NCBI GenBank assembly: GCA_902462015.1
Contig: CABPZV010000001.1
Span: forward strand, 1-53,440
DNA length: 53,440 nucleotides
DNA from: an uncultured Eubacteriales bacterium
GTDB taxonomy: Bacteria > Bacillota > Clostridia > Oscillospirales > CAG-272
Reading direction: 5' to 3'
Shown here one piece after another: positions 16,564 through 53,440 of this stretch (the first letter of the stretch is position 1; each line of letters starts with the position of its first letter). Both the position numbers and the translations under genes were made by a program. The notes beneath the pieces are model-generated. The model had not been told where the DNA came from and searched no databases. It saw only the letters and a program-made list of their open reading frames with translations.

Positions 16564-16701
16564 TATAACTTAGGTAAAATGTTCCCCGCCTCTAAGGCGG
16601 TGGCCTCTAAGGCTGCGGTTTACATTTCACCATTCAGTAGGAGATTGCATCTCCCACTGAATGGTTGCCATGTTTAGTGACGGTGCAAGCTCCTTATTGA
16701 A
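16564..16701 (-). repeat. modular intergenic repeat, copy R2 (reverse orientation, 2 GCCTTAGAGGC units)
   Basis: TATAACTTAGGTAAAATGTTCCCCGCC...core palindrome...GGTTGCCATG...GCAAGCTCCTTATTGAA. It lies between the clpX terminator and the tRNA-Gly 3' end. Confidence 0.9.
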
Positions 16702-16717
16702 TTTGATATACATATAA

Positions 16718-16791
16718 TGGAGCGGATAACGGGAATCGAACCCGCCTTATCAGCTTGGGAAGCTGAAGTTTTACCACTAAACTATATCCGC
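16718..16791 (-). tRNA. tRNA-Gly (anticodon CCC), CCA encoded
   Basis: Minus strand GCGGATATAGTTTAGTGGTAAAACTTCAGCTTCCCAAGCTGATAAGGCGGGTTCGATTCCCGTTATCCGCTCCA folds as a cloverleaf: 7-bp acceptor, TCAGC/GCTGA anticodon stem, loop TTCCCAA, T-loop TTCGATT. Confidence 0.9.
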
Positions 16792-23072: not shown

Positions 23073-23213
23073 TTTCCTGAAATTCCGTTCCTTTCGTTTG
23101 TTGATGTCCGGCGTGTAACTAAAAGCAAGATATTCCCTGCCTGATAAAGACGGCGGGTGCCGCTTACTTTTTTACGGTGGGTGGTACGATCGACCACTGA
23201 AACGTTGAATGAT

Positions 23214-23233
23214 GGGCTCTCGGCCTTATTGAA
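23214..23233 (-). repeat. solo fragment resembling the TTCAATAAGG end box of the R repeat
   Basis: Minus strand TTCAATAAGGCCGAGAGCCC lies immediately after the stop of the 23237..24085 gene. Compare TTCAATAAGGGCTGAAAGCCC in the extra module of R4. Confidence 0.4.
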
Positions 23234-23236
23234 GCC

Positions 23237-24085
23237 TTATTCTGCTGCGGTGTATACAGCAGTCTCAGATTCCTCTTCCTTCACGTTTACTCTATTGGTT
23301 CCAACAGCATTTTCGACTTTTGTTAAACCGTTGGCCGGGACGCCGGTATAAGCTTCCGTATTGCTTATTTTATGCGTTTCAAGCGAAGATAATTCATTAT
23401 AAATAACAATCTCTCTCCACGGGGCTAATTCACCGTCACCGTTTCCGATTATTTGCACTTCCCCCGGCGTTATATCGCGTGCCCGGAAAATTGCAAGAGA
23501 CAATCCGCCGACAGAATCGGTTGGTACATCGTCAAAAATGAGTCTTCTAAAGCTGTGAAGAGCGCTTGAATCGCTTATATAGCTGTAGCTGTCATACACA
23601 TTTCCCTCGCTGTCGTATAGAATATAGATAAACGGCTCCGCGCTGTAAATACCGTATTTATCCTCGACAGTTTCCGTCGCTTCGCTTTCCGCCGTTTCAT
23701 CTCCGGCATATTCAGATTCAAGATAGCGAAGCGTGCTGTTGTTGTAGCTTATTGTAATCTGCCACTGATTTGCAGACGGTATGGCAATAACACTGTCTGC
23801 AAAGAAATATCCGTCCTCCGTATAATAAGACTGTATCTTACAGTCATACGCAGAAAAACTGTCCTCACTGTTTTCATATGCCTGTATAGTACGGTCAGTC
23901 CATATCAGCCTTTTCAGCTCTTCCGGAGTACGCTGCTCACACATTCTGAGAGCGAATGCTGCGAGCATCAGAATTATGCATGCAAGAACCAGCCATTTTA
24001 AAAACTTACCTAAAAAAACTAAAAGCTTCGGAGGCTTTTTATATTCTTCTATATCATCAAGTTCATTAACCTTTTTATTTTTCAT
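23237..24085 (-). CDS. hypothetical single-pass membrane protein
   Basis: Start moved to M52 of the track ORF (MKNKKVNELDD...), followed by a TM segment WLVLACIILMLAAFAL and a Tyr/Ser/Asp-rich extracytoplasmic domain. No family recognised. Confidence 0.6.
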   Translation of the reverse strand: MKNKKVNELDDIEEYKKPPKLLVFLGKFLKWLVLACIILMLAAFALRMCEQRTPEELKRLIWTDRTIQAYENSEDSFSAYDCKIQSYYTEDGYFFADSVIAIPSANQWQITISYNNSTLRYLESEYAGDETAESEATETVEDKYGIYSAEPFIYILYDSEGNVYDSYSYISDSSALHSFRRLIFDDVPTDSVGGLSLAIFRARDITPGEVQIIGNGDGELAPWREIVIYNELSSLETHKISNTEAYTGVPANGLTKVENAVGTNRVNVKEEESETAVYTAAE

Positions 24086-24298
24086 TTTAATATCCACTCT
24101 TTCAAATCCGGACTGCCGGCGCGACGCAAAAAATTCGATGAACTGTATATTTTCTAAGATTAGAATAAGCTGCAGGAAAAGCTGTGTACTTTTAATATAA
24201 CTAAATGAAAATGTCCCGTCTGTCAGGACGGTGTTCATTTATTATATCACAATAAAATGCCATATTCAAGTTATTAAATCAAAATTAATAGGTTCTTC

Positions 24299-24327
24299 TT
24301 GAAAAATTATCCTCTGTGTGATATAAT
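24299..24327 (+). promoter_or_regulatory. sigma-A type promoter (TTGAAA-17-TATAAT, TG-extended) of the aminotransferase-trpS unit
   Basis: -35 at 24299-24304, 17-nt spacer ending in TGA, and -10 at 24322-24327. Confidence 0.6.
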
Positions 24328-36660: not shown

Positions 36661-36813
36661 TTCAATAAAGGGCTTGCACCGTCAAATGACGTGGCAACCA
36701 TTTCAGTAGGAGATTGTATCTCCCACTGAATGGTGAAATGTAACCCGTCGCCATTAAAGCTGCCGCTTTAATGGCGATTGCCTTAATGGCGGGGACATCT
36801 TGCCTAAGTTATA
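36661..36813 (+). repeat. modular intergenic repeat, copy R3 (forward orientation, 3 internal units, closest to consensus)
   Basis: TTCAATAAAGGGCTTGCACCGTCAAATGACGTGGCAACC, core 36698-36733, GGTGAAATGTAACCCG, CGCCATTAAAGCTGCCGCTTTAATGGCG, ATTGCCTTAATGGCGGGG, ACATCTTGCCTAAGTTATA. Confidence 0.92.
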
Positions 36814-36848
36814 AAAAAGCTGCTGCAAAGAATTACATTTGCAGCAGC
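36813..36848 (-). terminator. intrinsic terminator of the PFOR gene
   Basis: On the minus strand, stem GCTGCTGCAAA with TTTGCAGCAGC (36848-36838 and 36829-36819), followed by TTTTTT (36818-36813). It directly abuts R3. Confidence 0.8.
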
Positions 36849-36872
36849 TCCCAGAGAGCATAAATATATTTT

Positions 36873-43449: not shown

Positions 43450-44031
43450 ATGACAAGATCGGATCTTAATCTTAATAATCTGTCGCTTGCGGCAGTTGCC
43501 GGGATACCGCAGCAGTTTGTCTGCGACGGGCTTCCCCAAGTCGCTTTTTCCGGACGCTCCAATGTCGGAAAAAGCTCGCTTATTAATACTTTGCTCGGAA
43601 GGCGCTCATTGGCCAGAGTCAGTTCAACACCGGGAAAAACTATCACGGTAAATTATTATGATATTGACGGAAAGCTGTATTTTGTCGATCTTCCGGGATA
43701 TGGTTTTGCAAAGCGCAGTCCAGAGGAGAGAAAACGGCTGTCAGGACTTGGCGACGGATATTATGCGAGTCAGAAGCCAGCTCTTACTGTTCAGCTTATC
43801 GATATAAAATCAGGGCCTACGGCAGATGATTATACTATGCTTGATTTCCTCAGACGTACGGAAAAGCCATACGTCATTGCGGCGACAAAATGCGACAAAA
43901 TCGGTAGAACTGAACTGAACAAAAGGATTTCTGACCTTTCCGAATATGGTCAGGTTGTTGAGTTTTCTTCTCTTAAAGGGACCGGACGTGACGAGCTATG
44001 GAATCTGATAATTGCTTCGGCGGTGGTATAA
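43450..44031 (+). CDS. engB: ribosome biogenesis GTP-binding protein YsxC/EngB
   Basis: GRSNVGKSSLIN (G1), DLPGYG (G3) and TKCDK (G4). Conserved position after lon. Its TAA stop lies inside the end box of repeat R4. Confidence 0.92.
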   Translation: MTRSDLNLNNLSLAAVAGIPQQFVCDGLPQVAFSGRSNVGKSSLINTLLGRRSLARVSSTPGKTITVNYYDIDGKLYFVDLPGYGFAKRSPEERKRLSGLGDGYYASQKPALTVQLIDIKSGPTADDYTMLDFLRRTEKPYVIAATKCDKIGRTELNKRISDLSEYGQVVEFSSLKGTGRDELWNLIIASAVV

Positions 44032-44223
44032 CTCAGGCAAGATGTCCCGCTATTAAGGCAATCGCCATTAAAGCGGCCGCTTTAATGGCGGCGGGTTACA
44101 TTTCAAAATTCAGTGGGAGATACAATCTCCTGCTGAGTGGTTGGCCACGCCATTTGGCGGGGCAAGTCCCTTATTGAATCCGGCGACGGAACGCCGCATA
44201 GCGGGCTTTCAGCCCTTATTGAA
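44027..44223 (-). repeat. modular intergenic repeat, copy R4 (reverse orientation, 3 internal units) plus a duplicated end module
   Basis: The core element is 44027-44178: TATAACTCAGGCAAGATGTCCCGC...28-nt perfect palindrome 44063-44090...core palindrome...GGCAAGTCCCTTATTGAA. The segment 44179-44223 adds a second CCCTTATTGAA end preceded by the small hairpins CGGCG/CGCCG and GGGC/GCCC. Confidence 0.9.
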
Positions 44224-50095: not shown

Positions 50096-50304
50096 TAAAA
50101 AGCTTCCGTATTCCTAATAGAGTTTCAATAAGAGGCTTGCCCCGTCAAATGGTGTGGCAACCATTCAGTAGGAGATTGTATCTTCCACTGAATGGGGTTG
50201 CCACGCCGCCTTAGAGGCCACCGCCTTAAGAGACGATCGCCATTAAGGCTGCAGCCCTAATGGCGAGACATCTTGCCTAAGTTATAAGGAATACGGAATT
50301 TTTG
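50096..50304. terminator. bidirectional intrinsic terminator whose loop is occupied by repeat R5
   Basis: AAAAA (50097-50101), stem TTCCGTATTCCT (50104-50115), exact complement AGGAATACGGAA (50287-50298), then TTTTT (50299-50303). Between the stem halves lie 8 nt of loop (aatagagt) plus the 163-nt R5. Confidence 0.7.
50124..50286 (+). repeat. modular intergenic repeat, copy R5 (forward orientation, 4 internal units, palindromised core flanks)
   Basis: TTCAATAAGAGGCTTGCCCCGTCAAATGGTGTGGCAACC, then the core, then GGGGTTGCCACGCC in place of boxC, then GCCTTAGAGGC, GCCTTAAGAGAC, CGCCATTAAGGC and GCCCTAATGGCG, then AGACATCTTGCCTAAGTTATA. Confidence 0.92.
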
Positions 50305-53286: not shown

Positions 53287-53440
53287 TATAACTTAGGCAA
53301 GATGTCCCTGCCATTAAGGCAAGCCATTAAAACTGCCGCTTTAATGGCGATCGCCTTTCAGGCGACGGGTTACATTCACCATTCAGTGGGAGATACAATC
53401 TCCGACTGGAATGGTTGCCACGCCATTTGACGGGGCGAGC
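53287..53440 (-). repeat. modular intergenic repeat, copy R6 (reverse orientation, 4 internal units), truncated by the window end
   Basis: TATAACTTAGGCAAGATGTCCCTGCC...GCCATTAAAACTGCCGCTTTAATGGCGATCGCCTTTCAGGCGACGGGTTACATTCACC, then the core, then GGTTGCCACGCCATTTGACGGGGCGAGC. Confidence 0.9.

Follow-up and report, generated by a model that had tools for sequence, protein, structure and literature searches.

A dispersed, structured, non-coding repeat family in an uncultured human-gut Clostridia species

Introduction

Insertion sequences (ISs) of the IS200/IS605 type lack terminal inverted repeats (TIRs), leave no target-site duplications (TSDs), insert 3′ of a tetra- or pentanucleotide and carry subterminal hairpins, and they have derivatives that retain only the ends, the so-called PATEs, which are mobilised in trans by the Y1 HUH transposase TnpA and can reach many copies (PMC3201880, PMC7290912, PMC10055086). 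The REP/REPIN/BIME sequences of Proteobacteria and their RAYT enzymes follow a related design, as high-copy extragenic palindromes located after genes, also without TIRs or TSDs, on whose folded single strands a single-copy HUH enzyme probably acts. The present work deals with a stretch of 53,440 nt (hereafter the window) from contig CABPZV010000001.1 (assembly GCA_902462015.1) of an uncultured Eubacteriales bacterium, in which a short, hairpin-rich repeat occurs in six intact copies, with R3 (36661-36813, + strand) as the reference. The repeat is a dispersed, structured, non-coding family that has spread through one uncultured human-gut Clostridia species, and not through its sister species, and it is with high probability a lineage-specific selfish sequence mobilised in trans.

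Among Firmicutes, the pneumococcal BOX elements (boxA-boxB(n)-boxC) are likewise intergenic, strongly folded and close to gene ends, with constant termini around a middle part of variable length, and they vary by tandem direct copies of one boxB module. A different case is that of the Rickettsia palindromic elements, short palindromic repeats able to sit in frame inside protein genes, with in-frame insertion as their hallmark. The resemblance of the repeat described here to BOX is loose, since its variable parts are inverted hairpin arms and optional hairpin insertions, and it shares with the Rickettsia elements a single in-frame case among around 30 copies, in an unrelated host clade and without any sequence similarity. 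With regard to REPs, in which one palindrome, 20-40 nt long and with a 5′ tetranucleotide that is conserved, occurs clustered in alternating orientation, the present element has three different hairpins in a fixed order and unique termini; in addition, its host is a Firmicute and no RAYT was found in 71 kb. A sequence-only reading of the window had ascribed to the repeat the architecture of BOX elements and BIMEs, which can now be kept as a loose analogy, as there is neither a tandem unit nor an alternating single palindrome.

A dispersed family of hairpin repeats

The six intact copies align from end to end (MAFFT alignment), and their positions and orientations are those listed in the sequence-only reading: R1 at 892-1027 (+, 136 nt), R2 at 16564-16701 (-, 138 nt, with a variant loop in its first hairpin), R3 at 36661-36813 (+, 153 nt), R4 at 44027-44178 (-, 152 nt), R5 at 50124-50286 (+, 163 nt) and R6 at 53287-53440 (-), the last one cut by the window end. 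In other assemblies, the full copy of the R6 locus measures 164 nt (L003:19838-20001; L052:8039-8202). Patterns of 22-23 nt for boxB and boxE, two of the five boxes into which the repeat had been divided, were searched with up to 3 mismatches, and each of them matches exactly the same six places of the window, where 0.00 matches are expected by chance (none in 100 shuffles). No other substantial repeat family was found in the 53,440 nt.

Outside the window, around 20 further insertion sites with different flanks were detected in independent assemblies, either through a pattern scan of metagenome contigs or through the loci of spurious open reading frames (ORFs), which confirms a dispersed family and not a local duplication. 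The metagenome scan returned 24 stretches, five of them being chance half-matches without the left arm. A scan of genome contigs with the boxB pattern, in a collection that does not include the source species, gave one true relative (L002) and one chance match. Finally, a protein-database search with the translated frames of the element returned 7 spurious small ORFs, leading to three new sites, and neither a gene fused to an element end nor an enzyme. Most of the extra copies are found at contig ends, the position expected of a repeat on which assemblies break. Overall, the intact copies number at least 25 and are 85-95% alike. A walk of 10 kb to the left and 8 kb to the right of the window revealed one more intact copy, that is, 7 in 71.5 kb, and the previous estimate of hundreds of copies per genome is therefore a fair extrapolation.

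No similar sequences were detected in viral contigs (0 matches in the pattern scan), in 72,556 plasmids or in 50,697 phage records (0 matches with blastn). Scanning against Rfam at the gathering threshold matched only a tRNA-Gly, and permissive E-value scans of R3 and of the L048, L010, L022 and L002 copies gave nothing credible, and a search of the literature for a described family found nothing relevant. As already suspected from the sequence, the family appears to be undescribed. Regarding its host, the only records of identical proteins come from human-gut metagenome assemblies and metagenome-assembled genomes (MAGs) labelled 'Clostridia bacterium'. Dockerin proteins occur in relatives.

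Insertion sites and the TATAA boundary

A sister species, the nearest relative found (contig L038; 81% and 88% amino-acid identity in RluB and EngB, respectively) keeps an identical gene order from the PFOR gene to beyond ftsK over 20 kb. Within these 20 kb of syntenic DNA, no copy was found, at the sites of R4, R5 and R6 or anywhere else (nhmmer with E <= 10; the core pattern of the central hairpin is absent as well), and a covariance model run with its filters off gave nothing significant in L038, where the best match reached 10.2 bits (E = 0.75), nor in L033, a more distant relative. The site of R4 is also empty in L036, L033 and L037. The lengths of the intergenic regions agree with these data: the interval from engB to the M50 peptidase gene spans 233 bp in this species and 99 bp in the sister species, whereas the one between rluB and ftsK spans 319 bp (156 bp without R5) and 160 bp, respectively. 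Since three sites that are occupied here are empty in syntenic sister DNA, the copies arrived by insertion.

R5 sits in the loop of a bidirectional terminator between rluB and ftsK and splits its stem of 12-13 bp into a left arm at 50104-50115 (+, TTCCGTATTCCT) and a right arm at 50287-50298 (+, AGGAATACGGAA), the latter followed by a T-run. When the flanks are rejoined, they fold into a clean bidirectional terminator, and the prediction for the occupied site is that the stem still forms, with the folded R5 inside it. At the equivalent place, the sister species carries another terminator.

One boundary of the element shows a recurrent relationship with stop codons. The reverse complement of its last 5 nt is TATAA, and at four independent sites the TAA of this motif is the stop codon of the converging gene, namely those of EngB (R4), a YgjP-like peptidase (L025), MutL (L010) and an RluA-like synthase (L048). 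All four proteins keep complete C-terminal Pfam domains, and the C-terminal end of EngB falls in the same column of the alignment as that of four relatives lacking the element, its ancestral length being kept. In two more cases, SecA at R1 (5 nt from the 3′ end of the copy) and L002, the stop codon lies 5-6 nt away, and no copy uses any other of the in-frame stops offered by the element ends. The terminal TATAA of R4 (44027-44031 on the + strand) thus contains a codon of engB, and the previous statement that all copies are strictly intergenic was nearly right, the last 5 nt of R4 being where it fails. The longest ORF of FtsK also enters R6, by 28 nt, and the called gene starts later. None of the around 12 copy sites with both neighbours known lies between divergent genes. 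We think that the host supplies TATAA, or part of it, as the target, and that insertion takes place right next to this motif.

Architecture of the element

The copies have sharp ends (TTCAATAA...AAGTTATA), with the termini 5′ TTCAAYAAG and GTTATA 3′, and contain three hairpins, H1, H2 and H3, whose order is fixed. Their size ranges from 117 nt in L010 and L026, where the boxD hairpins are absent, to 188 nt in L048, which combines the optional hairpin X with a full boxD, around an element core of about 110-120 bp. The layout in five boxes that had been proposed is correct as a description and can be followed in R3 (all coordinates on the + strand). The 5′ terminus at 36661-36673 (TTCAATAAAGGGC), whose TTCAAYAAG is kept even in the distant L002 variant, is followed by H1 at 36674-36697 (TTGC.. 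CGTC AAAT GACG ..GCAA), which corresponds to the 3′ part of boxA, and by H2 or boxB at 36698-36733, a palindrome of 16-17 bp with the loop TGT that is the most conserved module. H3 occupies positions 36738-36798, with a base (ATGTAACCCG.../...CGGGGACAT) formed by boxC and the start of boxE around the variable boxD, which in this copy consists of a perfect hairpin (36749-36776) and one extra arm (36777-36791). The 3′ terminus at 36799-36813 (CTTGCCTAAGTTATA) ends in the reverse complement of TATAA, the proposed target or cleavage motif.

Across the family, H1 has the general form TTGCC-C-CGTC AAAT GGCG-T-GGCAA, with a second loop variant (H1b) in some copies, and H2 the form CCATTCAGTGGGAGAT TGT ATCTCCCACTGAATGG, whereas the base of H3, ATGTAACCCGCC / GGCGGGACAT, encloses a boxD with a small hairpin (CGCCTGAAAGGCG), a long perfect one (GCCATTAARGC-N4-GCYTTAATGGC) or both, sometimes with one extra arm. 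The optional hairpin X, GGTTGGC AAA GCCAACC, lies between boxA and boxB and is an inverted duplication of the adjoining GCCAACC. The arms of boxD are inverted (a, a′, sometimes a second a′) and form hairpins, and they do not make up a tandem series of a single unit. R5 carries, in the place of boxC, the GGCGTGGCAACC that precedes it (the 3′ part of boxA) in inverted form, and H2 grows in this way to a palindrome of around 30 bp. In R6, the boxD module has been swapped between strains for a variant seen in other copies. The elements grow by hairpin-templated inverted duplication and module swapping, and not by addition of tandem units. As for the closure of the whole element, which had been attributed to the pairing of CCCCG in boxA with CGGGG in boxE, the former belongs to H1, GGCGGG pairs with CCCGCC of boxC to close the boxD region, and only a weak GGGC/GCCU stem joins both ends.

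The element has no TIRs: when TTCAATAAGGGGC of the 5′ end is compared with TATAACTTAGGC, the 3′ end read on the opposite strand, only about 5 of 12 positions agree. Nor does it have TSDs: among 15 complete copies, the identity of the junction flanks is of 0-3 nt, the level expected by chance, with no fixed length, and no conserved flank base was found at the junctions. There are instead subterminal hairpins at both ends, with the foot of H1 at 13 nt from the 5′ end and that of H3 at around 15 nt from the 3′ end. Stop codons are present in all the frames of most copies, which leaves the element without coding capacity, as previously proposed. Public gene calls include seven small 'proteins' (P0166-P0172, 38-70 aa, with the motif ...SPFSGRYNLLL.WLPRHLTG...), which are translations of the repeat and spurious annotation artefacts.

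A single distant relative of the element was found, the variant at L002:2752-2863 from a mouse-gut 'Ruminococcus sp.' MAG. It forms a clean three-way junction in which the termini (TTCAACAAG...GGTTATA), H2 and the base of H3 are unchanged, whereas its H1 (GGCTTAC GATA GTAAGCC) and its closing stem (GCAGAC/GTCTGC) differ in sequence but keep the pairing. The covariance model matches this variant from end to end with 42 bits.

Probable mobilisation and alternative explanations

The most likely pathway for the spreading of this repeat would be that of a non-autonomous, non-coding mobile DNA family, multiplied in one uncultured human-gut Clostridia lineage, whose copies would be moved in trans by an enzyme encoded elsewhere in the genome through the recognition of their folded hairpins. 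Taken as a whole, this is the best explanation and we consider it reasonably probable. The likeliest candidate for such an enzyme would be an IS200/IS605-type or RAYT-type Y1 HUH transposase that works on single-stranded DNA by 'peel and paste', although this particular mechanism is put forward tentatively and may well not be the right one. On the strand complementary to the one previously taken as forward, insertion would take place just 3′ of a TATAA-like motif, which would often coincide with a TAA stop codon. After insertion, the copies would not be visibly kept by selection and would diversify through module exchange and hairpin-templated inverted duplications, adding stems such as X, the boxD hairpins and the extension of R5. 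With IS200/IS605 PATEs, the repeat has in common its short length, the lack of coding capacity, TIRs and TSDs, the hairpins near each end, a constant AT-rich pentanucleotide at one boundary and a spread that relies on no gene of its own. By analogy, a PATE or a REPIN-type element would be the closest mechanistic model, and membership of either group would call for a parent element or enzyme.

Several data weigh against this mechanism. The window contains no transposase, recombinase or RAYT, in agreement with the sequence-only reading, and no transposase or RAYT was found in the 18 kb beyond it (71 kb in total). Unlike in the case of PATEs, neither a parent IS, that is, a full-length element with these ends, nor tnpA or tnpB (Y1_Tnp/TnpB) was found in around 71 kb of contiguous genome and the short contigs that were read. 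A comparison of the cleavage sites with 4-nt guides at the hairpin feet, as in IS608, showed no convincing complementarity. Moreover, IS608 has two similar subterminal hairpins and inserts with a strand bias relative to replication, whereas H1 and H3 are alike only in their CCCG.C/G.CGGG stem core, the best-conserved hairpin (H2) is central and not subterminal, and no replication-strand bias was seen: orientations are 3:3 in the window under a steadily rising cumulative GC skew, and 8:11 with respect to the local GC skew at 19 sites, the skew being a noisy proxy. TATAA itself is a putative target. No base-exact empty site was recovered, the sister intergenic DNA being too diverged, and the reconstructed empty site of R5 folds equally well with or without TATA. 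Stop codons are enriched only around 3-fold over a TATAA-target model (p about 0.03, a rough estimate), and tolerated insertion into the last codons of genes is possible.

A functional RNA or a cis-acting element of the transcript, such as a stabiliser of 3′ untranslated regions, a terminator helper or a small RNA, with a three-way-junction fold under selection, would account for the very stable predicted structures, with z scores of about -7 to -8 (for R3, -7.1 on the + strand and -7.9 on the - strand, with respect to shuffled sequence). It would also fit with the many copies found just after stop codons or in or beside terminators, which would therefore be transcribed, with the modelled closing of the split terminator stem around R5, and with the L002 variant, which keeps its architecture despite different H1 and P1 sequences. 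Compensatory changes do not follow this expectation, however. As RNAalifold on the MAFFT alignment gave a poor consensus owing to the boxD indels, a hand-set structure of 36 pairs was used and checked by pair counts: 90% of the stem cells are paired, but there is one double change, and the covariation score (0.083) is no better than that of shuffles (mean of 0.079, with 93 of 500 column shuffles at least as high). Both strands fold alike (-1024 and -1048 kcal/mol summed over 17 copies), orientation with respect to the neighbouring genes is mixed, no consistent promoter or terminator was found inside the copies, no Rfam family matches, and sites are empty in the sister species despite the presence of the same genes. 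Between two strains whose genes are 98.7% identical and whose other intergenic DNA is 97.3% identical, four elements show identities of 95.4, 99.3, 95.7 and 85.5% (around 94% pooled). The lack of covariation, the equal folding of both strands, the occurrence in either orientation and a divergence faster than that of intergenic DNA argue against a functional RNA gene, an explanation to which we give very little credit. An RNA function of another kind would be that of a PATE still encoding a guide RNA, with an omega-RNA-like scaffold, the flank as guide, TnpB or IscB acting in trans and TATAA as the transposon-adjacent motif. IS200/IS605 PATEs are reported often to encode omega RNAs (PMC10055086), and the size of a scaffold, the high degree of structure, the conserved motif by one end and the lack of TIRs and TSDs would all suit this idea, which is equally improbable in view of the absence of Rfam matches even at the permissive threshold, of tnpB or iscB in 71 kb, of any strand asymmetry in folding and of an internal promoter.

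A classical miniature inverted-repeat transposable element (MITE), an internally deleted DDE-type IS moved through its TIRs by cut-and-paste or copy-paste and leaving TSDs, would be typical in size, copy number, intergenic position, use of both orientations and lineage-specific spread, and the ends do share a short inverted ATAA..GGC / GCC..TTAT, to which L002 adds a 7-bp inverted pair (GCAGACG/CGTCTGC) near its ends. The tips, however, show no inverted repetition, the pair of L002 lies inside the element, where it serves as a closing stem, the 15 complete copies lack a TSD of fixed length and no DDE transposase exists in the 71 kb, so a MITE is unlikely. Slightly less likely still is a family that does not move at present, either fossil sequences or binding sites of a host protein that spread long ago and were homogenised only by gene conversion. 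In this direction point the four copies of a 20-kb stretch that are fixed in every strain assembly seen, the exchange of modules between copies and the existence of degenerate old ones. On the other hand, intact copies in such numbers, so alike and absent from the same sites of the sister species, require many insertions after the split, and their sharp constant ends point to a defined chemistry of excision and insertion. The elements could also be part of an undescribed transposon system of gut Clostridia, in which three-hairpin units without TIRs or TSDs would be put beside TATAA motifs or stop codons by an unrecognised hairpin-recognising enzyme, and in which the copies might encode an omega-RNA-like guide used in trans by a TnpB/IscB-type nuclease; as with the MITE, we regard this proposal as unlikely.

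In any case, the repeat explains assembly breakage in this common uncultured gut bacterium and offers a ready marker for strain typing and for the detection of rearrangements. It adds a Firmicute example to the hairpin repeats without TIRs or TSDs, and its mobilising enzyme, once located in a complete genome, might prove to be a new HUH transposase or lead to a transposon associated with a guide RNA. Stop codons provided by copies, terminators split but not destroyed, an in-frame position within a membrane-protein gene and decay into a promoter-like sequence illustrate how repeats reshape gene ends. None of these effects is unprecedented, and this is an ordinary kind of selfish bacterial repeat.

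Degenerate copies and neighbouring genes

The covariance model, with filters off, led to two further degenerate copies in the window. The one at 23114-23233 (-) has an intact 5′ end (TTCAATAAGG) located 3 nt from the stop codon of an ORF at 23237-24238, an H1b-like hairpin (CATCATTCAACG), a decayed H2 and a 3′ end (GGGAATATCTTGCTTTTAGTTACA); it reaches only 10-11 bits with the model, and its identification follows from inspection of the sequence. The other, at 24196-24303 (-), is probably an old copy decayed towards AT (28% G+C), which keeps a 5′ end (TTCAAGAAG) and a 3′ part (AATGAACACCGTC...GACGGGACATTTTCATTTAGTTATA) and scores 14.6 bits (E = 0.047 window-wide). In the middle of this relic there is a near-consensus extended -10 promoter sequence (TTGAAT-17 nt-TATAAT, with TG one base upstream of the -10) facing the ORF at 23237-24238, and the first 14 codons of the longest reading of this ORF are translated from the relic 3′ end, its true start being probably a later MKNKK. 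The same ORF, with a degenerate copy on each side, was considered as the missing enzyme and rejected, as it reads as a membrane-anchored protein without any Pfam match whose first 14 codons are the relic. A solo 5′-end fragment of 21 nt (TTCAATAAGGGCTGAAAGCCC) is found at 44203-44223 (-), 24 nt beyond the 5′ end of R4.

Around 7 kb to the left of the window, a diverged copy of 119 nt without H2/boxB (L049:20973-21091, 27.6 bits) lies inside an uninterrupted ORF (L049:20788-21591) for a 267-aa Rce1-like membrane protein, between predicted hydrophobic segments and upstream of the Pfam domain (residues 172-261). This copy may be an in-frame insertion of the kind described for the Rickettsia palindromic elements. 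An intact copy (L049:21587-21754) overlaps the stop codon of the same gene. Effects on the host would be side effects of insertion: stop codons are supplied or abutted, terminators are entered or adjoined, divergent promoter regions are avoided, and one copy is in frame.

The genes of the window are housekeeping ones, among them secA, tig-clpP-clpX, the PFOR gene, lon, engB, scpAB and ftsK, the latter with R6 upstream. The 3′ end of R3 adjoins the A-run of the intrinsic terminator of PFOR (36814-36849, -), a hairpin (GCTGCTGCAAA.../...TTTGCAGCAGC) with a T-run that lies outside the element. R2 is placed between the tRNA-Gly(CCC) gene (16718-16791, -) and the 3′ end of clpX, 16 nt downstream of the tRNA and in the same orientation, and it is probably co-transcribed with the tRNA precursor. 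It also marks the clpX side of a gap of around 24 kb (16.5-40.9 kb) that separates clpX from lon in the window. Both genes are adjacent in many Firmicutes, as they are in the distant relative L032. The separation is old, because the PFOR-lon adjacency is common to the sister species.

Several short contigs agree with a known site on one side of a copy only (L029 with R4, L010 with L026, and L018 with R5) and have another flank or another internal module on the opposite side, and the left flank of L010 is an inverted, 93% match to the DNA at the right of the L049 copy, which points to recombination or rearrangement between copies, or to assembly chimeras at them. L032 (ERZ1304790 NODE_3030) was considered as a 79%-identical relative carrying R4 and discarded as a chimeric contig: its last 525 nt, with the 3′ part of engB and R4, are 96% identical to the window, the final 450 nt or so being identical, whereas the rest, with tig-clpP-clpX-lon-engB contiguous, is only around 64-76% identical. 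It would have arisen through misassembly at the repeat or through recombination.

Beside trkA, one strain (L053:1-4500) carries genes for a MobA/MobL relaxase, a TnpV-like protein and a sigma-70-like protein, where others have trkH and a two-component system; this block has the appearance of a mobilisable element particular to that strain and with no relation to the repeat. In a relative with 71% identity, 1.5 kb without called genes (L033:1853-3427) lie between parB and the PFOR gene.

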